Counted from the stretch's first letter, positions 6,019 through 31,515 are shown. The stretch is 64,000 bases of DNA from Betaproteobacteria bacterium (GCA_043743835.1 JAYTVT010000032.1:7599-71598), one strand, 5' to 3'. A program made the numbers and translations. Notes: generated from the sequence alone by a model not told the origin.

Positions 6019-7146
6019 CTATTTGGCGTTGCCCGAGTCGACGGCCATGTTGTAGTAAAGGCCGTTGATGCGCGTCCAATACGGCACCACGGTCCTGGCA
6101 AACGCGCGTTGTGAGTCCAGCACTTCCTTGAACAAGGGGTTCACGGTCGACTCCTTGTCGTAGACCACGTTGGTGGCGCGCACAAACTCCTTGAAGAACT
6201 CTTTGGGCGTCTCGTGGATGGTTACGCCGTGGTCCTTTTGCAGCTTGTTCATGGCCACCGCGTTGCGGTGCACGTTGAAGGTGTAGGTCTCGGCGATGGT
6301 GGCCAGCACCGCGCCTTCCATCACCGCCTTCAGGTCGGCGGGCAGCTTGTTCCAGGTGGCCTTGTTGATCAGGAATTCACCCACGTCGGTGGACTGGTGC
6401 ATGCCCTGCAGGTAGTAGTGCTTGAAGACGTTGTGAAAGCCCAGAATCATGTCGTCGGCCGGGCCTATCCACTCGGCTGCGTCGATCACGCCGCGCTGCG
6501 CTGCCGGCACGATTTCGCCACCCGGCATGGCCACCGCGTTGATGCCCATCTCCTTGAAGATGGCGCCAGTCAACCCGGGTGGTGAGCGGTACTTCAACTT
6601 TTTCATATCAGCGATGGAACTGATGGGCGACTTGAACCAGCCCAAGGGGTCCGGCCCCATGGGTTGCATCATGAAAGCCTTGACGTTGACCTTCAGGCCG
6701 TCGTTGAAGAGCTTTTCATACAGCGCGTTGCCGCCACCCTGCATCAGCCAGGCCATGTGCGACATCTGGTCCATGCCGGTGCCCGCGCCCGCGGCAGGGT
6801 TGGAAAAGAGCGCGGCCGCCGTGTTCTTGCCCGACCAGTAGTGGGTCCAGGCAAAGCCGCCGTCCACCACGCCCTTGTCCACGGCGTCCAGGATTTCAAA
6901 CGCATTGATCACCGCGCCGTCGGGCAGGATCTCCAGCTTCAGCCGCCCGTTGGACATCTTGTCCACGCGGTCGGCAAAGTGTTTCATCAGCTCAAAATAA
7001 ATGCTGGCGGTGGGCACCGCGGTCTGGATTTTCAGGCGGGTGGCGGCCTGCGCCTGGGCTGTGCTGCCGGCTGCCATGGCCACCGTGCCGGCCAGTGCAG
7101 CGGCGCTGTTGCCCAGCAGGCTTCTTCTCTTCAGGTTCGTCATCAT
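6019..7146 (-). CDS. dctP: TRAP substrate-binding protein (DctP/TakP-like), Tat signal
   Basis: KRRSLL twin-arginine leader; MSNGRLKLEI, KYRSPPG and GVIDAAEW motifs. Confidence 0.9.
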   Translation of the reverse strand: MMTNLKRRSLLGNSAAALAGTVAMAAGSTAQAQAATRLKIQTAVPTASIYFELMKHFADRVDKMSNGRLKLEILPDGAVINAFEILDAVDKGVVDGGFAWTHYWSGKNTAAALFSNPAAGAGTGMDQMSHMAWLMQGGGNALYEKLFNDGLKVNVKAFMMQPMGPDPLGWFKSPISSIADMKKLKYRSPPGLTGAIFKEMGINAVAMPGGEIVPAAQRGVIDAAEWIGPADDMILGFHNVFKHYYLQGMHQSTDVGEFLINKATWNKLPADLKAVMEGAVLATIAETYTFNVHRNAVAMNKLQKDHGVTIHETPKEFFKEFVRATNVVYDKESTVNPLFKEVLDSQRAFARTVVPYWTRINGLYYNMAVDSGNAK

Positions 7147-7213
7147 GTCTCCTTCAGGTCAAGTGAACAACGGGCGCCTGTGTGCCACCCACCTCATGCG
7201 CGGCGCTGGGTCT

Positions 7214-8824
7214 TCAGCGTCGGTTTGCATCCTCTTTGATCATGTGTGCGGCCTTCTCGGCCATCATCACCACGGGGGCGTTGGTGTTGCCTGAAACCAG
7301 CGTGGGCATCACCGAGCCGTCCACCACGCGCAGCCCGGCCACGCCGTGCACGCGCAGGCGTGCGTCCACCACGGCGCCGGCTTGCGGCTTGGGCCCCATC
7401 GCGCAGGTGCCGCTGGGGTGAAAAATGGTGGCACCGTTGTTGCGGCAAAACTCCAGCAGTGCGGCGTCGTCCGCGGCGTCAGGGCCGGGTTTGACTTCGC
7501 GCCGGATGAAAGGCTGCATGGCCGGGCTGGCGGCAATGGCACGGGCGGCCTTCAGCCCAGCCACGGCGGTGCGCCGGTCCAAGTCGGTAGACAGGTAGTT
7601 GGGCTGCATCTCGGGCGGTTGCAGAGGGTCGGTCGACTTGATGCGCACATGGCCGCGCGACTCGGGCCGCAGCTGGCACACCGACATGGTCATGCCCGAA
7701 AACGGGTGCACCGCGCCACCAGCCATGTCGGCTGAGAGGGTGGCCACGTGAAACTGGATGTCGGGTGTTTGTTCATCGCCGGGCAGCGCGCGCATGAAGC
7801 AGCCGCCCTGGTTGATGCCCACCGCCAAGGGCCCGCTGCGGTGCAGCAGCCATTGCAGGCCCAGGCGCGCCTGGCCCCACCACGAGCGCAAGGCGTCGTT
7901 GGTGGTGGGATGTGTGCATTCAAACGTCAGCCGCATCTGCAGGTGGTCTTGCAGGTTTTCGCCCACGCCTGGCAGGGCGTGTTGAACGGGTATGCCGTGT
8001 TGTTGCAGCAGCGCTGCCGGGCCGATGCCTGACAGTTGCAGCAGCTGGGGCGACTGGATGGCACCGGCGCAGAGCAAGACTTCGGCGTTGCAGCGCGCTT
8101 CTTTCTGAACGCCGCCTTGGGCATAGCGCACGCCCACCGCGCGGCCGTTTTCCATCAACAGGCCGCTGGCCTGGGCTTGGGTTTTTACGTCCAGGTTGGG
8201 GCGGCTGCGGGCGGGCTTCAAATAGCCTTTGGCGGTGCTCCAGCGCCATCCCTTCCAGGTGGTGAGTTGGTAGTAGCCAGCGCCCGCTTGTTGGTGGCCG
8301 TTGAAGTCGTCGGTGCGTGGCACGCCTTGGTGGCCAGCGCCTTCGATAAAGGCTTCGATGAGCTCGTCTTTCGTGCCAATGTCGGACACCGACAGCGGCC
8401 CATCACCACCATGAAAGGCGTTGGCGCCGCGCTGGTTGCGCTCGGACTTGATGAAATAGGGCAGCACATCGTCGTAGCCCCAGCCCGGGTTGCCTTGCGC
8501 GGCCCAGCGGTCGTAGTCCTGGCGCTGACCGCGGATGTAGATCAGGCCGTTGATCGAGCTCGACCCACCCAAGGTCTTGCCACGCGGCCAGTAGATGCGC
8601 CGGCCGTTCATGTTGGGGTCGGGGTCGGTGTGGAAGCACCAGTTGTATTTGGCGCTCCACATCGTCTTGCCGTAGCCGATGGGCAGATGGATCCAGAAGG
8701 AATCATCAGCGGGGCCGGCTTCCAGCAGCAGCACCCGGGTGGCTGGGTCTTCTGACAATCGTGCAGCCAACACGCAACCTGCCGAACCGGCCCCGATGAC
8801 GATGAAATCGTATGGGCTTGTCAT
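7214..8824 (-). CDS. GMC-family flavoprotein dehydrogenase (choline dehydrogenase-like; possibly isethionate dehydrogenase IseJ-like)
   Basis: YDFIVIGAGSAG, RGKTLGGSSSING, GENLQDH and GNTNAP motifs. Start placed at MTSPYDF (8824). The IseJ guess rests on context only. Confidence 0.88.
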   Translation of the reverse strand: MTSPYDFIVIGAGSAGCVLAARLSEDPATRVLLLEAGPADDSFWIHLPIGYGKTMWSAKYNWCFHTDPDPNMNGRRIYWPRGKTLGGSSSINGLIYIRGQRQDYDRWAAQGNPGWGYDDVLPYFIKSERNQRGANAFHGGDGPLSVSDIGTKDELIEAFIEGAGHQGVPRTDDFNGHQQAGAGYYQLTTWKGWRWSTAKGYLKPARSRPNLDVKTQAQASGLLMENGRAVGVRYAQGGVQKEARCNAEVLLCAGAIQSPQLLQLSGIGPAALLQQHGIPVQHALPGVGENLQDHLQMRLTFECTHPTTNDALRSWWGQARLGLQWLLHRSGPLAVGINQGGCFMRALPGDEQTPDIQFHVATLSADMAGGAVHPFSGMTMSVCQLRPESRGHVRIKSTDPLQPPEMQPNYLSTDLDRRTAVAGLKAARAIAASPAMQPFIRREVKPGPDAADDAALLEFCRNNGATIFHPSGTCAMGPKPQAGAVVDARLRVHGVAGLRVVDGSVMPTLVSGNTNAPVVMMAEKAAHMIKEDANRR

Positions 8825-10900: not shown

Positions 10901-12322
10901 ATGAAAGTCAGCAACAGCGAAGCCGGCAACACAGAAGCCCGCGCCACGGTGGCCGAGTTGGTGAAACGTGCACGCGCCGCCCAACGCATCGCCAACACCT
11001 ACGACCAAGCCCGCACCGACGAACTGGTGGCCGCTGCCGGCTGGGCCATCATCGAACCCCAGCGCAACCGCACGCTGGCCACGCTGGCCGTGGCCGACAC
11101 CGGCATTGGCGACGTGGAAGACAAGGTGCGCAAGAACCACCGCAAGACGCTGGGCCTGCTGCGCGACCTGGCCGGTGCCAAGACGGTGGGCGTCATTGCT
11201 GAAGACCGCGCGCGCGGCATCGTGGAAATTGCCCGGCCAGTGGGTGTGGTGTGTGCGGTGACGCCGTCCACCAACCCGGCGGCCACGCCGGCCAACAAGA
11301 TCATCAACGCGCTGAAGGCGCGCAACGCGGTCATCGTGGCGCCGTCGCCCAAAGGCTGGAGCAGCGCGGCCCGGCTGGTTGACTTCATCCACGAGCAGTT
11401 CCTGCGCATTGGCGCGCCGGCCGACCTGGTGCAGCTGCTGCCGTCGCCCGTGGACAAGGCGTCCACGCTGGAGCTGATGCGCCAGTGTGATCTGGTGGTG
11501 GCCACCGGCTCGCAAGCCAATGTGCGCGCGGCCTATGCCAGCGGCACGCCGGCCTTTGGCGTGGGCGCGGGCAATGTGGCCGGCATCGTCGACGAAACGG
11601 CCGATGTGGCGAAGGCGGCGGCGCACGTGCTGCGTTCCAAGACCTTTGACAACGCCACCAGCTGTTCGTCAGAGAACAGCCTGATCCTGGTGGGCGCGGC
11701 ACAAGAGCCCATGCTGGCAGCCCTGGCGTCGCTGGGCGCGGTGATGTTGGATGCCGCACAGAAGGCCCGCCTGCAGGCGTTGATGTGGCCGGACGGCAAG
11801 CTGTCTTCTGCCGCCATTGGCCAGTCGGCGGAGCGCATCTCGCAGCAAGCCGGTTTCGCGCTGGGTGCGCCACGCATCCTGATGGTGGAAGAAACGGGCG
11901 TGGGCGATGAGCACCCGTTTTCGGGCGAAAAACTCAGCCCCGTGTTGGCCATCTACCGCGTGGCCACGTTTGACGAAGCCGCACGTTTGGTTGAACGCAT
12001 CTACAACTTCCAGGGCGCTGGCCACTCGGTGGGCCTGCACACCACGCAGCCCCAACGCGCGCTGGCTTTGGGCCTGACACTGCCGGTCTCGCGGGTCATC
12101 GTCAACCAGGCGCACTGCATTGCCACCGGGGGCAGTTTTGACAACGGCTTGCCGTTCTCGTTGTCCATGGGCTGTGGCACCTGGGGCCGCAACAATTTTT
12201 CGGACAACATGACCGTGCGTCACTACATGAACGTCACGCGGGTCTCGCAGCCCATTGCCGAACAGGTGCCCAGCGAAGAACAGATCTTTGGCGCGTTCTT
12301 CAACAAATTTGGCCGCGCATGA
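10901..12322 (+). CDS. sauS: Acylating (CoA-dependent) aldehyde dehydrogenase, sulfoacetaldehyde dehydrogenase SauS-like
   Basis: TPSTNPAAT, ATGS, GVGAGN, KTFDNATSCSSEN, GEKLSPVL and SLSMGCGTWG motifs; followed by an acyl-CoA ligase as in sauST. Confidence 0.78.
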   Translation: MKVSNSEAGNTEARATVAELVKRARAAQRIANTYDQARTDELVAAAGWAIIEPQRNRTLATLAVADTGIGDVEDKVRKNHRKTLGLLRDLAGAKTVGVIAEDRARGIVEIARPVGVVCAVTPSTNPAATPANKIINALKARNAVIVAPSPKGWSSAARLVDFIHEQFLRIGAPADLVQLLPSPVDKASTLELMRQCDLVVATGSQANVRAAYASGTPAFGVGAGNVAGIVDETADVAKAAAHVLRSKTFDNATSCSSENSLILVGAAQEPMLAALASLGAVMLDAAQKARLQALMWPDGKLSSAAIGQSAERISQQAGFALGAPRILMVEETGVGDEHPFSGEKLSPVLAIYRVATFDEAARLVERIYNFQGAGHSVGLHTTQPQRALALGLTLPVSRVIVNQAHCIATGGSFDNGLPFSLSMGCGTWGRNNFSDNMTVRHYMNVTRVSQPIAEQVPSEEQIFGAFFNKFGRA

Positions 12323-12380
12323 TCGCGCCGAGTCGAATCCAGGCGCACAGCGCCAAGCCAGCAGTGGGAAAGGCCTGTTC

Positions 12381-13925
12381 GTGACCTCAACCACCGTCCG
12401 CGCGCTGCTGGATCAGCAGGCCTTGTTGCAACCGCAGGCACTGCTGGCGGTGGACACCGAGAGCGACGCTCAGTTGAGCTTTGGCGATCTGGCCGGGGCG
12501 CTGCCCGCGATGGACGCTTGGTTCACCCAAGCCGGCGCCGCAGCGGGCCAGACCGTGGCCGTGGTGATGCCCAACGGTTTGGGCACGCTGCGCTTGCTGT
12601 TGGGAGCCATGGCCAGCGGCCGTTGTGTGGTGCCGGTCAACCTGCTGTCACAGGCCGATGTGCTGCGCCATGTGCTGGACCACTCGGACTGCAGCGTGGT
12701 GGTCTGCGCACCTGACTGGACAGTGCGTGTGCAAGCGGCGCTGGACTTGATCGCGCGCCCTGTTGCCCTGCGCTGGGCAGACCCGCAAGCGTTGACGCTG
12801 GAAGGCGAGCAAGCCCATACGCCAAACAGGCCAACCACACCAACTACGTCTAGCGTGCCCAGCCCGCAGCCCGGCGACCCCGCGCTGCTGATGTACACCT
12901 CGGGCACCACCGGTCAGCCCAAGGGCGTGCAGCTCACCCACGCCCAGCTTTGCGCCAATGCGCTGGCCATTGCCGCCGAACACCAGCTGAGCTCCACCGA
13001 CCGCGTGTTGGGTGTGCTGCCGCTGTACCACATCAACGCTTTTGTGGTGACCATGCTCACGCCCTTGGCCACCGGTGGCAGCGTGGCCATGGCGCCGCGC
13101 TTTTCGGCCGCGCGTTTTTGGGCCCAGGCACAGGACCGCTACTGCACCTGGCTCAACGTGGTGCCCACCATCGTTTCGTTTTTGCTCGAAGGCCCCGCGC
13201 CGCCGCGCGAGCAGGTCGCCCGCTTGCGCTTTTGTCGCTCAGCCTCAGCCGCATTGCCGGTAGACCACCTGCATGCCTTTGAAGAGCGCTTTGGCATCGG
13301 CATTGTCGAGACCATGGGCCTGACCGAAACCGCAGCGCCGGCGTTTTCCAATCCGCTGGACCCTGCGCTGCGCAAGCCCGGTGCGGTGGGCCGCGCTTCG
13401 GGCTGCGAGGCCCGTGTGGTGGACGCGCAGACCCTGCTGCCACTGCCCGATGGCACCACCGGCGAAATCACCATCCGTGGCCCGCAGGTCATGCGCGGCT
13501 ACTACAAAGACCCGCAGGCCACCAAGGCGGCCTTCACGCTGGACGGTTGGTTGCGCACCGGTGATCTGGGTCGGCGCGACAGCGACGGCTTCTTCTTTGT
13601 GACGGGCCGCATCAAGGAACTGATCATCAAGGGCGGCGAAAACATCGCGCCGCGGGAAATTGACGAAGCGCTGCTGCGCCACCCCGACGTGCAAGACGCT
13701 GCCGTGGTGGGCATCCCCGACCGCCACTACGGCCAGGAGATCATGGCCTGCGTGGTGCTGCGCGCTGGCGCACAGGCCAATGAGGCGCAGTTGCTGGCGT
13801 TTTGCGAAGCCCAGCTAGGGCGCTACAAGACGCCCAAGGTGCTGCGCCTGGTCAGCGACCTGCCGCGTGGCCCTTCGGGCAAGGTGCAGCGGCTGAAGTT
13901 GCGCGACCTGGCGCCGCCCGGCTGA
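12381..13925 (+). CDS. sauT: AMP-forming acyl-CoA ligase, sulfoacetate-CoA ligase SauT-like
   Basis: YTSGTTGQPKG, MGLTET, LRTGDLG and GRIKELIIKGGENI motifs. GTG start at 12381 is chosen; the specific assignment relies on adjacency to sauS. Confidence 0.7.
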   Translation: MTSTTVRALLDQQALLQPQALLAVDTESDAQLSFGDLAGALPAMDAWFTQAGAAAGQTVAVVMPNGLGTLRLLLGAMASGRCVVPVNLLSQADVLRHVLDHSDCSVVVCAPDWTVRVQAALDLIARPVALRWADPQALTLEGEQAHTPNRPTTPTTSSVPSPQPGDPALLMYTSGTTGQPKGVQLTHAQLCANALAIAAEHQLSSTDRVLGVLPLYHINAFVVTMLTPLATGGSVAMAPRFSAARFWAQAQDRYCTWLNVVPTIVSFLLEGPAPPREQVARLRFCRSASAALPVDHLHAFEERFGIGIVETMGLTETAAPAFSNPLDPALRKPGAVGRASGCEARVVDAQTLLPLPDGTTGEITIRGPQVMRGYYKDPQATKAAFTLDGWLRTGDLGRRDSDGFFFVTGRIKELIIKGGENIAPREIDEALLRHPDVQDAAVVGIPDRHYGQEIMACVVLRAGAQANEAQLLAFCEAQLGRYKTPKVLRLVSDLPRGPSGKVQRLKLRDLAPPG

Positions 13926-13943
13926 AGAAGGCGCTTCAGCCGG
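13918..13943. terminator. Hairpin spanning the stop codons of convergent sauT and ligC (candidate bidirectional terminator)
   Basis: CCGGCTGAAG-N6-CTTCAGCCGG perfect 10-bp stem; no clear U-tract. Confidence 0.45.
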
Positions 13944-14892
13944 CGCTGGCCAGTTGTTGCTCCAACTGGTGCAGCACCTGGTAGCACGGCAGCACCTGCG
14001 CCACGCTGGCCCGGGGTTCGCGGCCTTCACGGATGGCGGCGAAGAACTCGCGGTCTTGCAACTCAATGCCGTTCATGGACACGTCCACCTGGCTCACATC
14101 AATGCGCTCGTCTTTGCCATTGAACAGGTCGTCATAACGCGCGATGTAGGTGCCGCTGTCGCCGATGTAGCGGAAGAACGTTCCCAGTGGCCCGTCGTTG
14201 TTGAAGCTGAGCGACAAGGTGCAGATCGCGCCCGTGCTGGCCTTGAGCTGGATGCTCATGTCCATCGCAATGCCCAGGGTGGGGTGGATGGGGCCTTGCA
14301 GGGCGTTGGCTTGCACGATCTCGCCACCGCTCTGGTGGCGAAACAGGTCGACCGTGTGCGCGGCGTGGTGCCACAGCAGGTGGTCGGTCCAGCTGCGCGC
14401 CTGGCCCAGCGCGTTCATGTTGCTGCGGCGGAAGAAGTAGGTTTGCACGTCCATCTGCTGGACCTTGAATTGACCCGCCAGCACCCTCTGGTGCACCCAT
14501 TGATGGCTGGGGTTGAAGCGGCGCGTGTGGCCGCACATGGCCACCAGGCCGCTGCTCTGGGCCAGGGCGGCAACGTCCTGGGCGTCCCTCCAGCTGTCGG
14601 CCAAAGGGATCTCCACCTGCACGTGTTTGCCGGCCTTCAAGCAGGCGATGGACTGTGAGGCGTGCATCTGCGTGGGCGTGCACAGGATGACGGCGTCCAG
14701 TTCTTTCAGCGCCAGACTGTCGGCCAGATCGGTGGTGACGTGGGCGATGCCGTACTTGTCGGCCACTTCCTGGGTCTTGGCCAGGTCGCGGCTGATCAGA
14801 GACACCACCTTGACGCCGTCAATTAAGTTGATCGCGTCCAGGTGTTTGATGCCAAAGGCGCCGGCGCCGGCCAGGGCTACGTTGATCGTCAT
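13936..14892 (-). CDS. ligC: 4-carboxy-2-hydroxymuconate-6-semialdehyde dehydrogenase
   Basis: Gfo/Idh/MocA fold, GAGAFG, KHVQVEIP, RSWTDHLLWHHAAHTVD; downstream of ligAB. Confidence 0.92.
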   Translation of the reverse strand: MTINVALAGAGAFGIKHLDAINLIDGVKVVSLISRDLAKTQEVADKYGIAHVTTDLADSLALKELDAVILCTPTQMHASQSIACLKAGKHVQVEIPLADSWRDAQDVAALAQSSGLVAMCGHTRRFNPSHQWVHQRVLAGQFKVQQMDVQTYFFRRSNMNALGQARSWTDHLLWHHAAHTVDLFRHQSGGEIVQANALQGPIHPTLGIAMDMSIQLKASTGAICTLSLSFNNDGPLGTFFRYIGDSGTYIARYDDLFNGKDERIDVSQVDVSMNGIELQDREFFAAIREGREPRASVAQVLPCYQVLHQLEQQLASAG

Positions 14893-23853: not shown

Positions 23854-24777
23854 ATGGACCTCAAACAGCTGCAGTACTTTGTCCAGGTGGCCGAGCTGGG
23901 TGGTTTCACCCGCGCGGCCAGCGTGTTGCGGGTGGCGCAGCCGGCCCTGAGCCGCCAGGTTCGCGCTTTGGAGGTCGAGCTGCGCCAGCGCCTGTTTGAC
24001 CGCAACGGGCGTGGCGTGACGCTGACCGCCGCCGGCACGCGCCTGCTGGCCCACGGCCGCGGCATCCTGCAGCAGGTGGAGCGCGCCCGCCTGGATCTGG
24101 AAGACCAGCGCGGCGCGGCCTCGGGTTTGTTGTCCATTGGCCTGCCGCCCAGCGTAAGCCGCACGCTGACCGCGCCGCTGGTCGAGGCCTTTCGCGAACG
24201 CTTTCCCCGGGCCACCCTCAGTGTGGTGGAAGGGCTGTCCACCTACACCTTGGAGTGGCTGGCCCAAGGGCGCATCGACTGCGCGGTGGTCTACAACGCC
24301 ACGCCAGCGGCGGCCATCGACCTGGTGCCCGTGCTGCAGGAGCCCCTGCTCCTGGTGTCGGCGCGCACCGCCCGTACCCCTGCGGCCTTCCGGGGTCCGG
24401 CAGTTTCGCTGGCACATCTGTCCACCAAGGAACTGGTCATACCCAGCCGCCCGCACGCCATCCGCATGCGCCTGGAAACGGTGATGGCCGAAGCCGGCTG
24501 CAAGCCGCTGGTGGGCTTGGAGATTGAAAGCGTGCCGGCCATGCTGGACCTGGTTCAGCGCCATGCGCTGCACGCGGTGCTCAGCCTCAACGCAGTGCGC
24601 GCCAGCGGGCGCGAGCAGGCCTTTGTGGTTCAGCCCATTGGCCTGGGCCCACGCCAATACCTCAGCACCAGCCTGTGGCTGGCCACTTCTGCGCTGAGGC
24701 CACGAGGCCCGCTGCTGGACCAAGCGACCCAGGTGCTGCTGGAACTGCTGCAGCAAACGCTGACCCCCAAGGCCTGA
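23854..24777 (+). CDS. LysR-family transcriptional regulator of the lig/pob operon
   Basis: MDLKQLQYF...FTRAA...AQPALSRQVRALE HTH; divergent from the operon. Confidence 0.93.
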   Translation: MDLKQLQYFVQVAELGGFTRAASVLRVAQPALSRQVRALEVELRQRLFDRNGRGVTLTAAGTRLLAHGRGILQQVERARLDLEDQRGAASGLLSIGLPPSVSRTLTAPLVEAFRERFPRATLSVVEGLSTYTLEWLAQGRIDCAVVYNATPAAAIDLVPVLQEPLLLVSARTARTPAAFRGPAVSLAHLSTKELVIPSRPHAIRMRLETVMAEAGCKPLVGLEIESVPAMLDLVQRHALHAVLSLNAVRASGREQAFVVQPIGLGPRQYLSTSLWLATSALRPRGPLLDQATQVLLELLQQTLTPKA

Positions 24778-24932
24778 TCCCGCCGGCAGCCACCCTTCAC
24801 CTGAAGGAGGCGGCGTCAACAAGGCCACACGGGATGCGCCTTTTTCAGGTCAATTGCTGCGTATGCTCTTCAAGGTGCACCGCAGGTGGTGTTCTGACCT
24901 GCCTGTCCTTCCAATTCACCGAGGAGCCCTTC

Positions 24933-26453
24933 TTGAAGCCCGCCCACACCATGTTGAAGCGCCTTGGCGCCTGCACCCTGGCCGCCGCAGCGGCACTGTT
25001 TTCTGTGGCCGCCCATGCCGAGAACCACGCCCTGATCATGTGGATCGGTGACTACGGCGACCCCAAGAACGACCTGCCCGGCATTGACCTGGACGCGGCC
25101 AACGCCCGCCTGATCGCCCAGGCCATGGGCGTGCCCGACCGCAACATCACCGAAATCAGCAACGCCCGGCTGACCAAAGAAGGCATGCGCAACGGCCTGG
25201 TCAAGCTCTACCAGACCATCAAGGACGGCGACAAGGTCTTCATCTATTACTCGGGCCATGGCGGTCAGGTGCAGGGCCACGAAACCAGCGCCAAGTGCAG
25301 TGAAGTGCTGGTGGCCCGCGATGGCCTGGTGCTGGATGCGTTCTTGCAAGACGCGCTGACCACCATTGGCAAGCGTGCCAGCCAGGTGGTGATGATCAAC
25401 GACTCGTGCTTCTCGGGCGGTGCCGCGACCAAGAGCGCACTGCCCAGCGGTGAACCCGGCGACCGGGCCAAGTTCATCGCGCCCGACGCCAAGGCCAACT
25501 CGGCGGTGACCCAGGGCTACGCCTGTGGTGACCCGACCAACACCACCAAGATCACCCGCAGCCTGGGGGCGATGAGCAAAGATGCCCGCGGCCCGCAGGT
25601 GCTTTACATCGCGGCGTCCAACGACACCCAGGTGTCTTTTGCCACGCCCAAGGGCAGCGTTGGCACGCTCGCCTTTGCGCATTGCATCGGTCTGGCCCAC
25701 GCCGATACCGACCGCAGTGGCCGCATCAACGGGGAAGAGCTGCGCGAGTGCGCGCAGGCCTACATCGACAAACGCCGAACCAAGCAGACCATCACCCTGC
25801 AAGGCAACGAACGTTTGCCGCTGTCGTTTGTCAAGGCTGAAGCACCAGCGCCTGCCGCGGCACCCGCTCCGGTGGTGGCCCCAGCCCCCGCAGCGGCGCC
25901 TGCGCCCACCGCGGCACCTGCGCCTGCAGTGGCGCCCGCTCCAACCGCGGCACCCGCACCGGCCACGGTCAATGCGGCCCAAGCCCTGCATGACCTGCAA
26001 GCCGGCGCTGACCGCAGCGTGCAAGTGCAGCTGGCCCTGGCGCGGTCCAGCTTGCGCATCGGCAAAGATTTGCTGGAGTTCACGGTGAGCACCGGTCGCG
26101 AGGGCTACCTTTACCTGCTGCAGGTGGGCAGCGACGGCAAGACCTTCAACCTGCTCTTTCCCAACAAGGTCGACGGTGAGAACTTTCTGCCGGCCGGCAC
26201 CCACCGCTTTCCGCGCCCCAGCTGGCGTTTGCGCGCCGGTGGGCCGGTGGGCAAGAGCCACGTGTTGGCCATTGTTTCGCCGGAGAAAAAGGACCTGTCA
26301 CGCGGCATGGACGGCTCTTCGGTCTTCCCATCCAGCAGCGCCAACCAGCGCAACACGCGCACGCTGGTGGTGGAAGCCACGGGTGCCGATGGCGGTGGCT
26401 CTGGACGTTATGGCGCCAGTCAGGTGCTGACGGTTACCGAGACCGCGGAATGA
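24933..26453 (+). CDS. Secreted caspase-family (C14, metacaspase-like) protease with EF-hand-like loop, Pro/Ala linker and DUF4384-like C-terminal domain
   Basis: Signal peptide ending AHA; His motif YYSGHG; Cys motif NDSCFSG; C-terminal GYLYLLQVGSDG...LLFPN. TTG start after GAGGAG; alternative ATG at 24951. Confidence 0.88.
   Translation: MKPAHTMLKRLGACTLAAAAALFSVAAHAENHALIMWIGDYGDPKNDLPGIDLDAANARLIAQAMGVPDRNITEISNARLTKEGMRNGLVKLYQTIKDGDKVFIYYSGHGGQVQGHETSAKCSEVLVARDGLVLDAFLQDALTTIGKRASQVVMINDSCFSGGAATKSALPSGEPGDRAKFIAPDAKANSAVTQGYACGDPTNTTKITRSLGAMSKDARGPQVLYIAASNDTQVSFATPKGSVGTLAFAHCIGLAHADTDRSGRINGEELRECAQAYIDKRRTKQTITLQGNERLPLSFVKAEAPAPAAAPAPVVAPAPAAAPAPTAAPAPAVAPAPTAAPAPATVNAAQALHDLQAGADRSVQVQLALARSSLRIGKDLLEFTVSTGREGYLYLLQVGSDGKTFNLLFPNKVDGENFLPAGTHRFPRPSWRLRAGGPVGKSHVLAIVSPEKKDLSRGMDGSSVFPSSSANQRNTRTLVVEATGADGGGSGRYGASQVLTVTETAE
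25842..25964 (+). repeat. Pro/Ala tandem repeat linker (about 18-bp period, APAPxx)
   Basis: APAPAAAPAPVVAPAPAAAPAPTAAPAPAVAPAPTAAPAPA within the caspase CDS. Confidence 0.8.
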
Positions 26454-27784
26454 AGGGCGGACGGCGACTGGCTTGTTTGCTGCGGGCCGGCATGATGGAT
26501 CCCCGATTCACGCTCCACAGGTCGTCGGCCGCAGCCGCGCTTGTGCTGCTTGGCTGGAGTCCCATGGCGGGCTCAACCTCTGCCGTTTTGCCGCCTGCCG
26601 TTTTGTCGCCTGCAGTAGCGAAGGCATCGGCGGCGGACAGCGGCTCACCTGCAGCCCTGGCCCTTGCGCTGGCCGACCTGGGCGGTTCCATGCTGAACCA
26701 GTCCAGCGCCGTCAACGCGGTGCAGTCGCCCGTGGCGACGGCCGTGGCCCTGGGCCTGGTTCAAGCGGGTGCCAACGGGCCGTCCGAACAAGAGATCGAG
26801 GCACTCTTTGGGCCCCGCCCTGAGGGCGGGCGGGCGCTGCGCCAGGGCTTGCCAAGCTTGCTGCGCCAGATGCAGGGCGAGCCCGGAACGGCCTCGCCCT
26901 TGGCGCTGGCGGCGCGCATGTGGGTGGATGAAAAAGCGGTTGTGCCCAAGGCCTACAGCCAGCGGCTGGCCAGCCGCTGGCAGGCTGACTCGCAGCGCCT
27001 GGCGTTTGCCCAAAGCGAGGCGGCGCGTGCGCAGATCAATGGCTGGACGGCCGAGCGCACCGCCGGTCGTGTCAAGGACCTCTTGCCGTCCGGCAGCATC
27101 CATTCGGCAACCCAGATGGCGTTGACCTCGGCGGTGCACTTTCGCAGCCCTTGGGAAAAGCCTTTTGACCCCGCACAGACCACAGCCCGTCCTTTCAAGA
27201 CCGCCGCCGGCGACAGCAAAACGGTGCCAACCATGGTGGACGAACGTGCCGTCCTGCAGACCCGGGCGGACGGCCACCTGGTGATGGAAATCCCCTTTGC
27301 CACGCCCGCGGGCCGGCCCGGCTTTGCGCTGCTCATCGCGGTGCCAGACGAGGGTGCAGCGGGCCGAACGGCAACCAGCTCGGGTGCGCAGCTGGCTCGC
27401 TGGCGGGCCAGCATGGCGCCCATCAAGTGCGAACTCAGCTTGCCTCGTTTTGCCATCGCACCGCAGTCGGGTTCACTCAAATCCGTGTTGCAGGGTCTGG
27501 GTGTGAAGACCGTTTTCACCGACCGAGCCGACCTGCGCCCGATGCTGGGTCGAGGCGCGCAGCTGATGCACTTGGATGACGTGCACCAGGCCGCGGGTAT
27601 CACCGTGGACGAGCAGGGCGGCGAGGCGGTGGCGGCAGCCGCTGCCACCGTGCGCAGCAAGTCCATCGCGCTGCCGGTGCCAGCCTGCGCGGTGGACCGG
27701 GCTTTCACGTTTGCCTTGGTACACCAAGCCAGCGGAGCGCCTTTGTTTGTGGGCCGGGTGGGCGACCCGGTGCTGGCACCTTGA
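26450..27784 (+). CDS. Serpin (serine/cysteine protease inhibitor), probably exported
   Basis: SP..A.ALGLV..GA.G, INGWTAERTAGRV, VHFRSPWEKPF, LPRF, hinge DEQGGEAVAAA, and DRAFTF...LFVGRV. ATGA overlap with the caspase stop; the real start may be ATG 26492/26495. Confidence 0.92.
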   Translation: MKGGRRLACLLRAGMMDPRFTLHRSSAAAALVLLGWSPMAGSTSAVLPPAVLSPAVAKASAADSGSPAALALALADLGGSMLNQSSAVNAVQSPVATAVALGLVQAGANGPSEQEIEALFGPRPEGGRALRQGLPSLLRQMQGEPGTASPLALAARMWVDEKAVVPKAYSQRLASRWQADSQRLAFAQSEAARAQINGWTAERTAGRVKDLLPSGSIHSATQMALTSAVHFRSPWEKPFDPAQTTARPFKTAAGDSKTVPTMVDERAVLQTRADGHLVMEIPFATPAGRPGFALLIAVPDEGAAGRTATSSGAQLARWRASMAPIKCELSLPRFAIAPQSGSLKSVLQGLGVKTVFTDRADLRPMLGRGAQLMHLDDVHQAAGITVDEQGGEAVAAAAATVRSKSIALPVPACAVDRAFTFALVHQASGAPLFVGRVGDPVLAP

Positions 27785-27858
27785 AGGCCAGCTGCTCACA
27801 GCCAGTTGCGGACCGACCTGCCGACTGACCTGCTGACAGGCGGTGGTGGTGCCCGAGT

Positions 27859-28686
27859 TCAGCGTGACGACGCTGGCAACGGGCACAGCGGGCCAGGGCA
27901 GGCTGCAATTTGTGCGGTGGCGTGTTGGTACCACAGGCTCCCGGCAGCAGACTGCGCTTGGGGTAGTCCTTCGCGCTCGGTCATGAACGCGGGCAGCAAG
28001 CGGCGGGCCACGGCTTGGCGTTCTTGCGTTGGCACGGCTTGCCACTGTGGGTCTTGCCAACGCCACAAGCGCCCGGCGGCGTAGGTGCCAGCGCCTCGAC
28101 CGGCTTCGCGCCCGTTTTGCCAGCCACTGTCCATCAAGCTGCACGCGGTGCGCCCGGGCTCTTGAACCAGGATGGTCAGCGACTGCCACTCGCTGACCCT
28201 GCGGCATGCTGGCGCAGTGGCGGGTCCGGCCAGCGGTTTGTCGGGGTTGACCACGCACAACTCGTGCGAACTGACGCCCAGCCCGTTGCTGATGCCCAGC
28301 AACCTGGCCACCAGCCAGCGCGGCCTGCCATCGTCCGATAGGTTGGCGGGAAGCACTTCAAAGGCTGCAGCGCCAGTCATGGGCGAGACCTCGGTTGGCC
28401 ACCGCTGCACCACCTGGCCACCATTGCGGTGTTGGTATTGCCAGGCTTGGGGGGTTTTGCAGGCACACAGCAGCTGTTCGCCAGCCGCCGCGCAGACCGC
28501 CCGGGCGCAGCCCTGCAGTTGGCGCGGCCGCGGTGGCTCCCAGCGGGGGCCGACGGTGCACATGCGGTCGGCCACGGCATCGGCTGGCGGTGCGGCCCAA
28601 GTGTTGGGCAAGCCGAGGGTCGCCGCAGCCGGCAGCCAACTGCAACGCCGCAGCCAAACGAACAGCTGGGCAGACGCTGTCGCCAT
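27859..28686 (-). CDS. Cys-rich hypothetical exported protein
   Basis: TGATG coupling to the upstream gene; putative leader ending TWA; several Cys pairs; no recognised family. Confidence 0.55.
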   Translation of the reverse strand: MATASAQLFVWLRRCSWLPAAATLGLPNTWAAPPADAVADRMCTVGPRWEPPRPRQLQGCARAVCAAAGEQLLCACKTPQAWQYQHRNGGQVVQRWPTEVSPMTGAAAFEVLPANLSDDGRPRWLVARLLGISNGLGVSSHELCVVNPDKPLAGPATAPACRRVSEWQSLTILVQEPGRTACSLMDSGWQNGREAGRGAGTYAAGRLWRWQDPQWQAVPTQERQAVARRLLPAFMTEREGLPQAQSAAGSLWYQHATAQIAACPGPLCPLPASSR

Positions 28687-29180
28687 CAAGGCGTCGCAGC
28701 GACTTTCTTGGTGTACTTGTCGTAAGCGTTGTCCATGGCGCGCAGCAGACGGTTCAAGGTGGTCTTGAAGTCGCCCGGCACGACCAAGAACATTTCGGCC
28801 GCAAAGGTGGGGTCGCCGTCACTGTCCAAAAAGGCCTTGATCACCTTGACTTCGTTGCTGGCGGTGTTGACGCCTTCCAGACGCCGAATGCGGGCCTGGG
28901 GCGATTTGTCATCAGCCGAAAAGGCCAGGACCATGCGGAAGTAGGTCGCATCGTCCGCGTCGACATAGATGACGTAAGAGCGGCCTTCGCGGCGGAAACG
29001 CACGTTGCCGTTTTGCGTCAACTCAGGACGAAACCCTTCGGTGGCCAGGAAGTCGGAATAGGTGGTTTGCAGCTGCTGCTTGGTGTAGGTCTGGGCCGAA
29101 GCGGCGCCAGCGCCCAAGGTCAGCGCGGCGCACAGGGCCAGCGGGCAGGCGAGTTGCGAGAACATGGATTTTTTGTTCAT
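28686..29180 (-). CDS. Exported protein, YbjN-like (type III chaperone-like fold)
   Basis: Signal peptide ending ASA; FLATEGFRPE...GNVRFRREG and KVIKAFLDSDGD resemble the YbjN pattern. Confidence 0.6.
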   Translation of the reverse strand: MNKKSMFSQLACPLALCAALTLGAGAASAQTYTKQQLQTTYSDFLATEGFRPELTQNGNVRFRREGRSYVIYVDADDATYFRMVLAFSADDKSPQARIRRLEGVNTASNEVKVIKAFLDSDGDPTFAAEMFLVVPGDFKTTLNRLLRAMDNAYDKYTKKVAATP

Positions 29181-29218
29181 GAAGGGCTCTTCTCTGGGAG
29201 TGACGGAAAAAGGGTTGA

Positions 29219-30535
29219 TCAGAGTTTTTGCAAGGCGGCGCGTGCAAGGTCAACGTAGCGGCCGTTCGGGTAAGCGGCCAGGTAGGCTTCGTAGTCGGCC
29301 CGGCGCTTGCTGGTGGCGGCGCGGTCCCACAGCTCGAACTCTGCCTGCGGGTTGTGGGCTGCTGTGGGTTTGGGCGCGGCCACGGGCGCCGGTGCTGGTG
29401 CTGGGGCAGCAGCCATGCCCGCGATCTTGGTGCGGGCCTGGGGCGTGTAGCGGCCCTCAGGGTATTGCGACACGAACCGCTCCAGCGCGGCTCGGGTGCC
29501 CACTTTGACGGCGGCTTCCCAGTCGTCGAATTCGCGCTGCGGGCTGTAGCCACCTGGGGCAGGTGCTGGGGCCGGCGCCGGCGAAGGTGCCGGTGGCCTG
29601 ACCACAGGCGCCGGGGCCGGCGACGGTGGCGGTGGCGCGCTGAAGACAGGCGCCGGCGCAGGGGCTGGGCTCGGGGGCGCGAACACCGGGGCCGGCGCAG
29701 TTGACGGAATGGCTGAGCCGCTGGGGTAGAAGAAAAAGTCGGTCGACGACTCGTCCACCAGTGACGGCCGTTGCGCATGGTTGACGCTGGCCGCCGCCGT
29801 TTCCACACTGAGCTTGACCCGCTTGAGCATGTCGCCGGCCGACAAGCCCGGGTTGCGGATCTGTTTGATCAGTTCACGGGTAAACAGACCATTGGGCACC
29901 GTGTCGGCGTTGTTCAGGCGGTCCAGCGCTTCTTGCCCCTTGGACGCGGCCATGATGATCATGCTGCCCTTGGGAGGCTCGATGCGCCCCAGCCCAGAGC
30001 CCGGCGGCAAGGACCGGCCGTTGGTGGTTTCGCGGAAAGGGTCGTTGCGACAGGCGTCGATGATGACCAGCGAAAAGCGGGCGCGCTTATTCAGGTCGTC
30101 AACCAGTTGCTCCAGCGACAGCCCGTCGCGCGAAATGGCCCGTTCGCCGGTGACCTTGATGTCCACGGGCAGCAGGAAGGGCCCCATCTGCGGCGGCTGC
30201 GAACCGTGGCCGGAAAAAAAGAAGACCACCTCATCGCCTTTGTCGATGCGGCGCAAAAAACCATCGAGCTGGTCGTTCAAACCGTCTCGCGTGGCGTCCA
30301 GCACCCGGGTGACCTTGAAGCCGGCAGCCTCAAGTTCCCGGGCCAGCGACTGCGCGTCGTTGCGTGCATTGCGCAACTTGGTGATGCTGGTGTAGTTGTC
30401 GTTGCCCACCACCATGGCCAGGCGCGCCGCCTGGGCTTGCAACAGCAGGCAGGCGGCTGCAACCGCCGTGCTCAGCACCAGGCGTGGCAGGCGGGGGGCT
30501 TTGGCGAACCTGGGCGCCAGCCGTTGGGAACTCAT
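29219..30535 (-). CDS. Secreted caspase-family (C14, p20-type) protease with Pro-rich linker and two C-terminal helical repeats
   Basis: Signal peptide ending AQA; RLAMVVGNDNY, LRNARNDA, FFSGHG (His), IIDACRND (Cys), NGLFT; repeats EF..W...YP.GRY...AR. Confidence 0.9.
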   Translation of the reverse strand: MSSQRLAPRFAKAPRLPRLVLSTAVAAACLLLQAQAARLAMVVGNDNYTSITKLRNARNDAQSLARELEAAGFKVTRVLDATRDGLNDQLDGFLRRIDKGDEVVFFFSGHGSQPPQMGPFLLPVDIKVTGERAISRDGLSLEQLVDDLNKRARFSLVIIDACRNDPFRETTNGRSLPPGSGLGRIEPPKGSMIIMAASKGQEALDRLNNADTVPNGLFTRELIKQIRNPGLSAGDMLKRVKLSVETAAASVNHAQRPSLVDESSTDFFFYPSGSAIPSTAPAPVFAPPSPAPAPAPVFSAPPPPSPAPAPVVRPPAPSPAPAPAPAPGGYSPQREFDDWEAAVKVGTRAALERFVSQYPEGRYTPQARTKIAGMAAAPAPAPAPVAAPKPTAAHNPQAEFELWDRAATSKRRADYEAYLAAYPNGRYVDLARAALQKL

Positions 30536-31194
30536 TGCGGGGCCTTTCTGATTTCAACGCGGCGGTGCGTGCCGCTGGTGTCCTTGTTGTCGGCCAGCAG
30601 CCGGGTACTACCAAAACCGTAGGCCGACAGGCGCGGCTCGGCCACGCCCTTGGCCATCAGGTAGCGGCGCACGGCCAGCGCACGGGCACATGACAACTCC
30701 AGGTTGATGCGGGCGTCGCCGGTGGTGTCGGTGTGGCCGGCCACCGCAAAGCTGTCGCTGGCCAGTTCAGGGCGCTTGAGGGCTGCGGCCAAGGTGTCCA
30801 GCAGCGCGCGGTCGGGCGCGGTGAGTTTGTCCGACGCGTTGGCAAACTGCACGCTCAGGTTGACGCCAGGCGTGGTGTCGCCAGCGTAGGGCACGACTTC
30901 CAGGTTGCGCTTGTTGGATCCGGAAGGGGCGGCCGGGTTTGCAGCGGCAGGGGCTGCTTGTTCAGCGCACAGGCTGGACCCCACGTCGGGCAATTGGGTG
31001 CGTTTGAAGGACCGTGTGGCGGGCCCGCTGCTCAGCGCGTTGACGAGTGCGTCCACCGTGGTCTGGCTCATCGGCTGCTGGGCGTCGGCGGGCAAGCTGA
31101 CCGCCAACAAGGCCGCCAGGCCGACCGACACGACTGCCGTCGGCAAGGGCCAACGCGAGACAGCGGCAAGAAAGTGCAGGTGTTTGGCGGTCAT
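30532..31194 (-). CDS. OmpA-family peptidoglycan-binding domain protein, exported
   Basis: Signal peptide; VQFANAS, AGHTDTTG, NLELSCARA and RRVEI motifs; ATGA overlap with the caspase start. Confidence 0.9.
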   Translation of the reverse strand: MTAKHLHFLAAVSRWPLPTAVVSVGLAALLAVSLPADAQQPMSQTTVDALVNALSSGPATRSFKRTQLPDVGSSLCAEQAAPAAANPAAPSGSNKRNLEVVPYAGDTTPGVNLSVQFANASDKLTAPDRALLDTLAAALKRPELASDSFAVAGHTDTTGDARINLELSCARALAVRRYLMAKGVAEPRLSAYGFGSTRLLADNKDTSGTHRRVEIRKAPQ

Positions 31195-31515
31195 GGTGTG
31201 GGCGAAGTTGAAGCCGTCGGGACAAGATCGCGGTCGACAAACTCGTCGATATCGATCCTATGTTGGCCTACGCAAGAATAACGGTGCCAAAGGATCATCG
31301 GCGCTGATGCAGCGCGGTGTCGTGAATTTGCCTCAGCATTGGTCGCCCCTCCAGGCGCGCCCGTGGCCAGGGCGCAAGTGAGCCCCTGGCCCGAGCGGAC
31401 CAAGCCAGGGTGGCGTTTGCGGACCGGTAAGCTAGCAGTATCCCGGGTGGCCGCAGGGCCAGGCCACCTGCACCATCATCTTCGAACTTCCGATCGATCA
31501 CAGGAGCAAGCGACC

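Follow-up and report, generated by a model that had tools for sequence, protein, structure and literature searches.

Suicide-substrate serpins that act on clan CD cysteine proteases include CrmA (caspases 1 and 8) and serpin B9. A plant serpin, Arabidopsis AtSerpin1 (Serpin-ZX), is described as a suicide inhibitor of metacaspase 9 (AtMC9) of the same plant (PMC3534287), and type II metacaspases are reported to cleave on the C-terminal side of Arg or Lys (Vercammen 2004, cited in PMC2064784). Characterized bacterial serpins occur patchily among bacteria and are found at the cell surface or secreted; most of the targets known for them are serine proteases of hosts or of other foreign origin, and the review of these proteins names no dedicated endogenous protease partner (PMC8233489). 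Alphaproteobacterial proteins that combine a trypsin domain, a pseudo-orthocaspase with a Gln-Cys (QC) dyad, and DUF4384 were described by Klemencic et al. (2019, PMC6426788), with no mention of serpins. Here we describe a six-gene cluster at positions 24,933–31,194 of a 64,000-nucleotide stretch of DNA from a Betaproteobacteria bacterium (GCA_043743835.1, JAYTVT010000032.1:7599-71598; the whole stretch is called the window). In this cluster the gene for a predicted metacaspase-type protease of family C14 (caspase A) overlaps a serpin gene, next to genes for a Cys-rich protein, a YbjN-like protein, a second C14 protease (caspase B), and an OmpA-like protein (Table 1).

The locus resembles several of these systems and differs from each. 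Like AtSerpin1 with metacaspase 9 or metacaspase 1, it pairs a serpin of basic P1 residue with a metacaspase-type clan CD protease, as predicted here from sequence. The plant pair is not encoded in one operon and works intracellularly or in the apoplast, whereas the genes here overlap, both products carry predicted export signals, and an EF-hand-type loop and a DUF4384 tail are part of the protease. CrmA and serpin B9 have P1 Asp and are cytosolic, unlike the serpin described here, which has P1 Lys and is predicted to be periplasmic. The MALT1 paracaspase (caspase-Ig3), the closest solved relative of caspase B by sequence, is a cytosolic animal signaling protease with death and Ig domains and has no serpin partner. 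The alphaproteobacterial proteins share with caspase A the C14 domain, a Ca-loop-like segment, and DUF4384, and can be aligned with it, but they begin with a trypsin domain, and some of them have a QC dyad, whereas caspase A has no trypsin domain and a His-Cys (HC) dyad. Miropin of Tannerella forsythia, the siropins, the Bifidobacterium longum serpin, tengpin, and thermopin have a serpin fold and an inhibitory hinge, as here. Unlike characterized bacterial serpins, this one is tied to endogenous C14 genes and belongs to a clade with one fixed P1 residue. The components are known families (serpin, C14 metacaspase/orthocaspase, OmpA_C), and inhibition of a plant metacaspase by a serpin was already known. 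What is added is a mostly trypsin-less Burkholderiales clade, a P1 Lys fixed throughout it, a caspase A whose best match is AtMC9, and carriers in culture.

Caspase A and the serpin

Caspase A matches the Peptidase_C14 model with 50.7 bits (cut-off 21.4). An alignment of 76 homologs has invariant H103, C153, D48, D151, and K174, together with four further Cys, and the catalytic dyad (YYSGHG/DSC) is intact and conserved in orthologs. The profile built from these homologs was compared with the PDB, where the best solved relatives are AtMC9 (2.2e-12) and AtMC4 (8.2e-12), and the DSCFSGG motif of caspase A lines up with DSCHSGG of both. An AlphaFold2 (AF2) model was obtained with a predicted local distance difference test score (pLDDT) of 86 and a predicted template modeling score (pTM) of 0.84. 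The modeled fold is of the caspase-hemoglobinase type; Foldseek ranked AtMC9 first for it (6.5e-14), followed by Geobacter GSU0716, AtMC4, and MALT1. The closest solved relative of caspase A is therefore the one metacaspase known to be inhibited by a serpin. D151 (in DSC) and D48 align with the DSC and GCxND Asp residues of AtMC9 and AtMC4, an Asp pair that we take to line the Arg/Lys-binding S1 pocket in TbMCA2, the solved metacaspases, and MALT1. These features point to a metacaspase-type C14 protease that keeps acidic S1-type residues, with a predicted specificity for Lys/Arg.

The serpin domain (PF00079; MEROPS I4) scores 234.7 bits (cut-off 27) and spans positions 13–370 of the 370-position profile. 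Against the PDB, the serpin profile matches PAI-1 (4.7e-61) and AtSerpin1 (3le2; 4.3e-48); the matches to PAI-1, antithrombin, and neuroserpin range from 1e-53 to 1e-61, and ovalbumin is also among the matches. Five hinge positions are invariant in 101 homologs (P17 Glu, P15 Gly, P12 Ala, P9 Ala, P7 Ala), while P14 is Gly, unlike the usual Thr/Ser. The hinge appears to be of the inhibitory, loop-inserting type. The P1 residue was assigned by counting from the hinge as in alpha-1-antitrypsin and is Lys in 119 of 120 homologs, down to 52% identity, the single exception being frameshifted. In the same set P1' is Ser, Thr, Ala, or Gly and P2' is Leu, Phe, or Ile, and P2 and P3 are free to vary. 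P1 Lys is also retained in the serpins of Vitreoscilla, Sphaerotilus, and a metagenomic contig (L036), which are 41–46% identical, and in those of genomes G930 and G970; serpins from another proteobacterial class have Arg at the aligned position. Unlinked proteobacterial serpins carry different loops when compared on the serpin tree, and nine C14-linked Burkholderiales serpins form a single clade (support 98/98). One row of this tree (free_Bacteroidales_L013) is a 46-residue fragment that was disregarded and has no bearing on the clade. One bait residue fixed at such depth implies one conserved kind of target protease, and an invariant Lys fits a target of the metacaspase type. On balance, caspase A is probably a periplasmic Lys/Arg-specific metacaspase that is restrained by its own suicide serpin.

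Recurrence of the gene pair

About 10 Burkholderiales contigs carry the arrangement of the window, with serpins 52–86% identical to the one found there. LysR, caspase A, and serpin genes come first and are followed by a convergent set of YbjN-like, caspase B, and OmpA-like genes; the flanks are LysR with a LigAB pathway on one side and Fer2/MoCoBD on the other. Given these shared flanks, conservation at this site reflects vertical descent. Caspase A and the serpin are never apart in the window-type loci, and a start/stop overlap or a gap of <50 nucleotides (nt) between them is retained in most loci. The remaining genes come and go. The Cys-rich gene was found only in the window, L012, and L014 and is absent from L015/16, L017, L030, L031, and L032; L030, L017, and the P0096 contig have no YbjN-like gene; L017 lacks caspase B and L031 the OmpA-like gene; and transporter-like genes replace the entire minus-strand operon in L011. 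Other differences between these loci were also recorded. Caspase A is divided in one of them (L030:6470-8001) into a 359-amino acid (aa) C14 gene and a 141-aa DUF4384 gene, through a frameshift or a true split. A DDE transposase lies between the serpin and the YbjN-like gene of another (L032:9511-10860), and the LigAB-pathway operon is fragmented on that contig. Two short HtrA-like genes (Trypsin_2 and PDZ) and a GerE-type regulator are located just past the OmpA-like gene in three window-type loci (L017:12392-14877, L032:13976-14887, and the P0096 contig); the window does not have them there.

Rearranged loci in the Burkholderiales were reached through a search for caspase A homologs. Vitreoscilla filiformis (CP022423.1) has caspase A followed by the serpin, with no other cluster genes and unrelated neighbors. 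The pair lies amid two OmpA-like genes, a DUF4384 gene, an extracytoplasmic function (ECF) sigma factor, and five C14 genes in Sphaerotilus mobilis (SGWV01000008.1). Contig L036 has caspase A, the serpin, a 293-aa protein, and a trypsin-family protease, with OmpA-like, DUF4384, YbjN-like, and two C14-Sel1 genes in the same neighborhood; a CBM96 and collagen-repeat protein is encoded at the cluster edge (L036:13900-15054). Within the same Genome Taxonomy Database (GTDB) family, serpins were identified in two of 250 other genomes, both times within C14/OmpA/DUF4384 clusters, and the only genome sampled from the same genus lacks a serpin. Gene order in G930 is caspase A, serpin, OmpA-like, C14-DUF4384, and C14-FGE-sulfatase; in G970 it is serpin, C14-FGE, DUF4384, OmpA-like, C14-DUF4384, and C14-TolB_N. 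All three C14 matches of the G930 genome are <4 kb from the serpin, as are three of four in G970 at <6 kb. C14-FGE-sulfatase fusions with predicted export, and one C14 protein with a faint TolB_N match, recur in the serpin clusters of Sphaerotilus (L034 coordinates 6060-7799 and 12290-14269), G930, and G970 (L037 and L038).

The linkage extends to another proteobacterial class. G068 has a DUF4384-TPR-OmpA gene, a C14 gene, a trypsin-C14-DUF4384 gene, the serpin, and a protein kinase gene, and a trypsin-C14-DUF4384 gene is followed by the serpin in G642 and G487, with an identical 4-nt overlap in G642. The dyad of these trypsin-fused relatives is QC in G068, with Gln for the catalytic His, and HC in G642.

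Serpins are rare in the roughly 1,050 genomes sampled, all from one phylum, and were found in 7 of 401, 10 of 401, and 3 of 251 genomes in three samples. A C14 gene lies within 6 kb of the serpin in five of 15 other serpin-bearing genomes (4 genera); going by the sizes of these genomes and their numbers of C14 matches, we estimate that chance would give ~0.12. Because related genomes are not independent, the enrichment serves as an indication and not as a formal test. The genome that contains the window (G000), 4.47 Mb in size, has a single serpin and 11 Peptidase_C14 matches, and since the linkage recurs in other genomes, the juxtaposition goes beyond chance. This genome is unusually rich in caspases, with several C14 domains in open reading frames (ORFs) of 700–1400 aa and three DUF4384 matches.

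The sequence-only reading of this DNA had looked to recurrence across taxa as support for a system, and the C14-serpin linkage does recur, with its genes in various orders and within two classes of Proteobacteria. It had also proposed a self-contained circuit of six genes. This holds for a smaller unit: only caspase A and the serpin are constant, most often accompanied by an OmpA-like gene and further C14 genes, while the Cys-rich and YbjN-like genes are optional and the set of six is not fixed.

Export signals and compartment

Each of the six N-termini has a positive n-region, a 10-residue hydrophobic stretch (mean Kyte-Doolittle value 1.3–2.6), and small residues at –3 and –1, and AxA-type cleavage sites are kept in orthologs. 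The hydrophobic window of caspase A has a mean Kyte-Doolittle value of 2.28 and is preceded by three Lys/Arg residues; the signal predicted for the Cys-rich protein is the weakest of the six. Conserved non-catalytic Cys residues are even in number or absent in every mature protein (four in caspase A, two in the serpin, two in the OmpA-like protein, and 10 in the Cys-rich protein), which is consistent with an oxidizing compartment. The six proteins appear to occupy one shared compartment.

Proposed mechanism and target of the serpin

From gene content, conserved linkage, the invariant bait, and the catalytic residues, S1-type residues, and fold of caspase A, we infer how binding, inhibition, compartment, trigger, and biological role might fit together. 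Caspase A and the serpin would be translationally coupled and both exported by Sec. The protease would attack Lys404 of the serpin, whereupon the reactive-center loop would insert into sheet A and hold the enzyme in a covalent acyl (thioester) trap, as AtSerpin1 does with AtMC9. Active caspase A, and perhaps caspase B too, would be captured in this way, and caspase activity would arise in the periplasm only if the protease outran the serpin or was activated. Binding of Ca2+ at the EF-hand-type loop, or loss of the serpin, would free activity against envelope targets. DUF4384, the Pro/Ala tethers, the tetratricopeptide repeat (TPR)-like repeats of caspase B, and the OmpA-like protein could place the system at the peptidoglycan or outer membrane. 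Caspase B is probably a second protease of the same system, and the OmpA-like protein probably serves it as a substrate or as an anchor to the cell wall. Related clusters have an ECF sigma factor, a protein kinase, or a two-component system as neighbors, which hints at a link to envelope signaling.

The loop proposed as the Ca2+ site (DTDRSGRINGEEL) is an exact match to PROSITE pattern PS00018, and the pattern is kept in 71 of the 76 caspase A homologs. It sits between helices 237–245 and 261–274 of the AF2 model, and the G642 segment aligned to it is DADGDGIVSHAEL. We regard this loop as a candidate Ca2+ switch. The model was also aligned with MALT1 caspase-Ig3 chains over ~500 columns at a root mean square deviation of >20 Å, which hints at a layout of protease plus beta-sandwich in caspase A. 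Residues 155–210 form a flexible loop (pLDDT <50 at residues 182–201) that bears K161-S-A and the invariant K174; Lys or Arg at 161 followed by Ser and a hydrophobic residue is found after the catalytic Cys in 74 of the 76 homologs.

Caspase A, or its trypsin-fused form, is the neighbor that the serpin always has, and trypsin-less loci hold the hinge and P1 Lys fixed. A C14 protease is the simplest reading of the serpin's target. No serine protease gene was found within the clusters of the window, the other window-type loci, Vitreoscilla, Sphaerotilus, G930, or G970, and the trypsin domains of related clusters have no homolog in the window's own genome (88% complete). Trypsin-family (PF00089) matches elsewhere in G930 and G970 are weak, partial, and comparable to those of E. 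coli, and look HtrA-like. Several observations weigh against a C14 target and against a dedicated pair. In 10 of the 15 other genomes sampled that carry a serpin, no C14 gene lies close to it. Caspase A homologs also occur with an OmpA-like gene and no serpin, in L035 and in a paralog on contig C45 of G000, which indicates that the protease does not strictly require the inhibitor. Export was assessed by a heuristic only. Orthocaspases characterized to date are reported to prefer Arg over Lys. Finally, the clusters of the other class and L036 contain a chymotrypsin-fold serine protease, so the serpin may have arisen as the inhibitor of such an enzyme or may act on both kinds of protease, and HtrA-like Trypsin_2-PDZ genes adjoin three window-type loci.

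These serine proteases suggest another target, and with it an explanation that we consider unlikely: the serpin would act on a lost or unlinked trypsin partner, a periplasmic HtrA-like enzyme, or a foreign Lys-specific protease of competitors, predators, or hosts, and the caspases would merely be co-regulated envelope proteins. Characterized bacterial serpins chiefly target serine proteases, often those of hosts (PMC8233489). The trypsin domain in G068 and G642 is fused to the C14-DUF4384 protein immediately upstream of the serpin, and L036 has a separate trypsin gene two genes past it; HtrA-like genes flank the three loci noted above. However, trypsin-less loci are the majority in the Burkholderiales and have an unaltered inhibitory hinge and P1 Lys. 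The window's genome has no homolog of those trypsin domains and G930 and G970 have the weak partial matches only. HtrA proteases, moreover, favor an aliphatic P1. A shield against foreign proteases would leave the constant coupling to a C14-DUF4384 gene unexplained.

The linkage and the conservation of the bait would equally fit a serpin that is a substrate or partner of the caspase. Cleavage at Lys404 would then yield a relaxed form that serves as signal, chaperone, or decoy, or the serpin would be a folding or escort factor for caspase A. Non-inhibitory serpins such as ovalbumin exist, and Gly at P14 in place of the usual Thr/Ser could be read in the same direction. Invariant P15 Gly and an Ala-rich P12–P9 are the signature of a loop-inserting inhibitory serpin, though, and the closest solved relatives (PAI-1, antithrombin, and neuroserpin) are inhibitors, which makes this role distinctly improbable. 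That there is no functional link at all, the genes being neighbors by descent and the clusters alike through the abundance of C14 domains, is already disfavored and very improbable: conservation at the ten window-type loci with common flanks is simple vertical inheritance and the genome has 11 C14 matches, but the pair survives altered flanks and gene order and occurs in another class, C14 matches are concentrated by the serpin in G930 and G970, and the caspase A-serpin start/stop overlap is retained.

Features of the cluster and its surroundings

Table 1. Positions of genes, domains, and key residues in the window.
Feature	Position	Strand	Evidence or remark
Caspase A: metacaspase-like C14 protease (predicted exported), Pro/Ala linker, C-terminal DUF4384	24933..26453	+	Pfam, ortholog alignment, AF2
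Caspase A, long ORF	24675-26453	+	Pfam Peptidase_C14 2.5e-13 and DUF4384 1.8e-16
Caspase A, signal peptide, predicted cleavage between AHA and ENH	24933..25019	+	A-x-A then ENHALI in four orthologs
Caspase A, C14 catalytic domain	25020..25838	+	Invariant residues in 76 homologs
Caspase A, His103	25257-25259	+	Numbering from ATG 24951
Caspase A, Cys153	25407-25409	+	Numbering from ATG 24951
Caspase A, EF-hand-type loop DTDRSGRINGEEL, residues 252-264	25704..25742	+	PROSITE PS00018
Caspase A, DUF4384 domain, beta-rich, C-terminal	26055..26285	+	PF14326, 1.8e-16; strands 358-443 with high pLDDT
Serpin, predicted inhibitory type, putative export signal, invariant Cys 327 and 413	26450..27784	+	Pfam Serpin 2.6e-69
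Serpin, reactive-center loop, P17 Glu388 to P4', hinge EQGGEAVAAAAAT	27611..27673	+	
Serpin, P1 Lys404 (P1' Ser)	27659-27661	+	
Cys-rich protein (predicted exported), 275 residues, no family	27859..28686	-	ORF 27859-28689
YbjN-like protein (predicted exported), cleavage between ASA and QTY	28686..29180	-	Pfam YbjN 5.6e-5, 23.8 bits
Caspase B: C14 protease (predicted exported), Pro/Ala linker	29219..30535	-	Pfam C14 3.8e-31
Caspase B, His110	30206-30208	-	
Caspase B, Cys162	30050-30052	-	
Caspase B, two 40-residue helical repeats	29414-29533 and 29222-29341	-	
OmpA-like protein (predicted periplasmic): signal peptide, 80-residue N-terminal region, OmpA_C	30532..31194	-	Pfam OmpA 2.4e-20
OmpA-like protein, predicted peptidoglycan-binding OmpA_C domain	30568-30846	-	

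The sequence-only reading had listed six genes with their domains, three start/stop overlaps, a His-Cys dyad in each protease (YYSGHG/DSC and FFSGHG/DAC), and plausible N-terminal export signals on all six products, and had known of no described bacterial caspase-serpin operon. Every domain that it named was present in a Pfam scan of the cluster. The overlaps were read directly: ATGA at 26450–26453, where the stop codon of caspase A meets the start of the serpin, ATGA between the OmpA-like and caspase B genes, and TGATG between the YbjN-like and Cys-rich genes. Both dyads are conserved in orthologs, and the export signals remain plausible by the heuristic used here. A literature search gave no description of a bacterial caspase-serpin operon, and a review of the serpin superfamily is likewise silent. 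No NCBIfam model above its cut-off names the system. In PADLOC-DB 2.0, the only matches were to one generic model for caspases (39 and 54 bits) and, through the OmpA domain, to ZorB/MotB models; no anti-phage system was named, and there was no match to the serpin, the YbjN-like protein, or the Cys-rich protein.

The start codon of caspase A is most likely TTG 24933 or ATG 24951. The TTG is 6 nt downstream of GAGGAG and fits the N-terminus of the L017 ortholog, and the signal peptide is identical with both starts. Orthologs give no backing to the long ORF from 24675. In the database, the serpin of this assembly (P0002, 364 aa) begins at internal Met81 and so lacks the export signal (window 26450–26692), while conservation with orthologs already starts upstream of that residue. 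On contig C45 of the same genome (L029:4894-11454, minus strand), a C14 and DUF4384 paralog 33% identical to caspase A is found with genes for a LuxR-type response regulator, a hybrid histidine kinase, a 276-aa protein, and an OmpA-like protein; a further OmpA-like gene is at 12159–12770.

Caspase B matches Peptidase_C14 with 109 bits (cut-off 21.4), and H110 and C162 are kept in four orthologs. Its match to MALT1, an Arg-specific paracaspase, has a value of 1.8e-8, with DAC and RNDA of caspase B lined up with DMC and VDV of MALT1, and the loop after the catalytic Cys has a conserved Gly-Arg-Ser-Leu/Ile. The C-terminal repeats gave nothing above cut-off and merely faint YfiO/TPR matches. The OmpA-like protein scores 73.1 bits for the OmpA domain (PF00691; cut-off 27.2), with the NxxLSxxRA-type motif read as INLELSCARA and a conserved Arg/Lys-Ser-Phe in its N-terminal region. 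It reaches no NCBIfam equivalog cut-off (Pal, YiaD, MotB, and others) and is therefore not a named member, and at 220 aa it is too short for the N-terminal barrel of OmpA proper. Full-length orthologs occur in the rearranged clusters of Sphaerotilus (42% identity), L036 (43%), and G970 (48%).

The YbjN-like protein is a marginal match to PF10722 (23.8 bits, cut-off 22). Its six orthologs have a mean column identity of 76%, and the AF2 model built from them has a pLDDT of 58. The Cys-rich protein, with 10 Cys in its mature part, has no Pfam match even at an E value of 5 and none in NCBIfam or PADLOC, and an Atlas feature search returned only unnamed clusters and a DUF8095 lead (0.90, low recognition). 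This gene looks like a lineage-specific accessory.

Tripeptides of Lys or Arg, Ser, and a hydrophobic residue are found in four of the proteins: K161-S-A in caspase A (25431–25439), R-S-L in caspase B (~30011–30019), R-S-F in the OmpA-like protein (~31004–31012), and K-S-I at the serpin bait (27659–27667). These conserved tripeptides in flexible regions may be shared processing sites, or may have arisen by chance. Such short motifs are common, and their likeness to the K-S-[L/F/I] of the serpins is given little weight.

The cluster is flanked on one side by Amidohydro_2, solute-binding protein, and LysR genes and on the other by a Fer2/MoCoBD dehydrogenase; these are ordinary metabolic operons common to relatives. 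G+C is 0.66–0.67 both within the cluster and in the flanks. Recent horizontal transfer of the cluster was rejected on the basis of this uniform G+C and the shared metabolic flanks. The genome has a G+C content of 66%, its nearest public relatives are metagenome-assembled genomes of Rubrivivax sp., and its DNA was detected in sediment and freshwater metagenomes. A scan of 24600–31500 found nothing promoter-like, and the frequency of terminator-like sites did not exceed that in shuffled sequence. Short metatranscriptome contigs from four freshwater libraries (four studies) match pieces of the cluster at 93–100% and cover parts of the caspase A, serpin, YbjN-like, caspase B, and OmpA-like genes. 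None of the contigs from these libraries lies on the Cys-rich gene, which proves nothing. The RNA contigs are strandless and may include DNA carry-over, and give a weak hint that the cluster is expressed.

Implications for bacterial caspases and serpins

The proposed serpin-restrained metacaspase may be part of something larger. Tentatively, and with considerable doubt, we suggest a periplasmic metacaspase cascade that is tethered to peptidoglycan and ruled by a dedicated suicide serpin, whose Lys-Ser-hydrophobic bait would copy the maturation sites of the proteases. Ca2+ or envelope damage would trigger remodeling or destruction of the envelope, as in developmental, stress, or anti-predator/anti-phage cell death. 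Such a cascade, if true, would be the prokaryotic equivalent of the protease cascades that serpins control in plants and animals, and might be their forerunner.

Caspase homologs are abundant in bacteria and nearly all are without an assigned role or regulator, and most bacterial serpins are without an assigned endogenous target. A conserved, coupled pair of metacaspase and serpin, both predicted to be exported, offers each family a concrete and testable partner. The Burkholderiales form without trypsin is the cleanest case, as its pair includes no protease other than the C14 domain, and its carriers in culture (Vitreoscilla filiformis and Sphaerotilus mobilis) already allow biochemical and genetic work. 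The pair would locate proteolysis of the caspase type in the envelope of the cell, as opposed to the cytoplasm, and it suggests that the control of clan CD proteases by serpins known from plants, animals, and poxviruses also occurs in bacteria.

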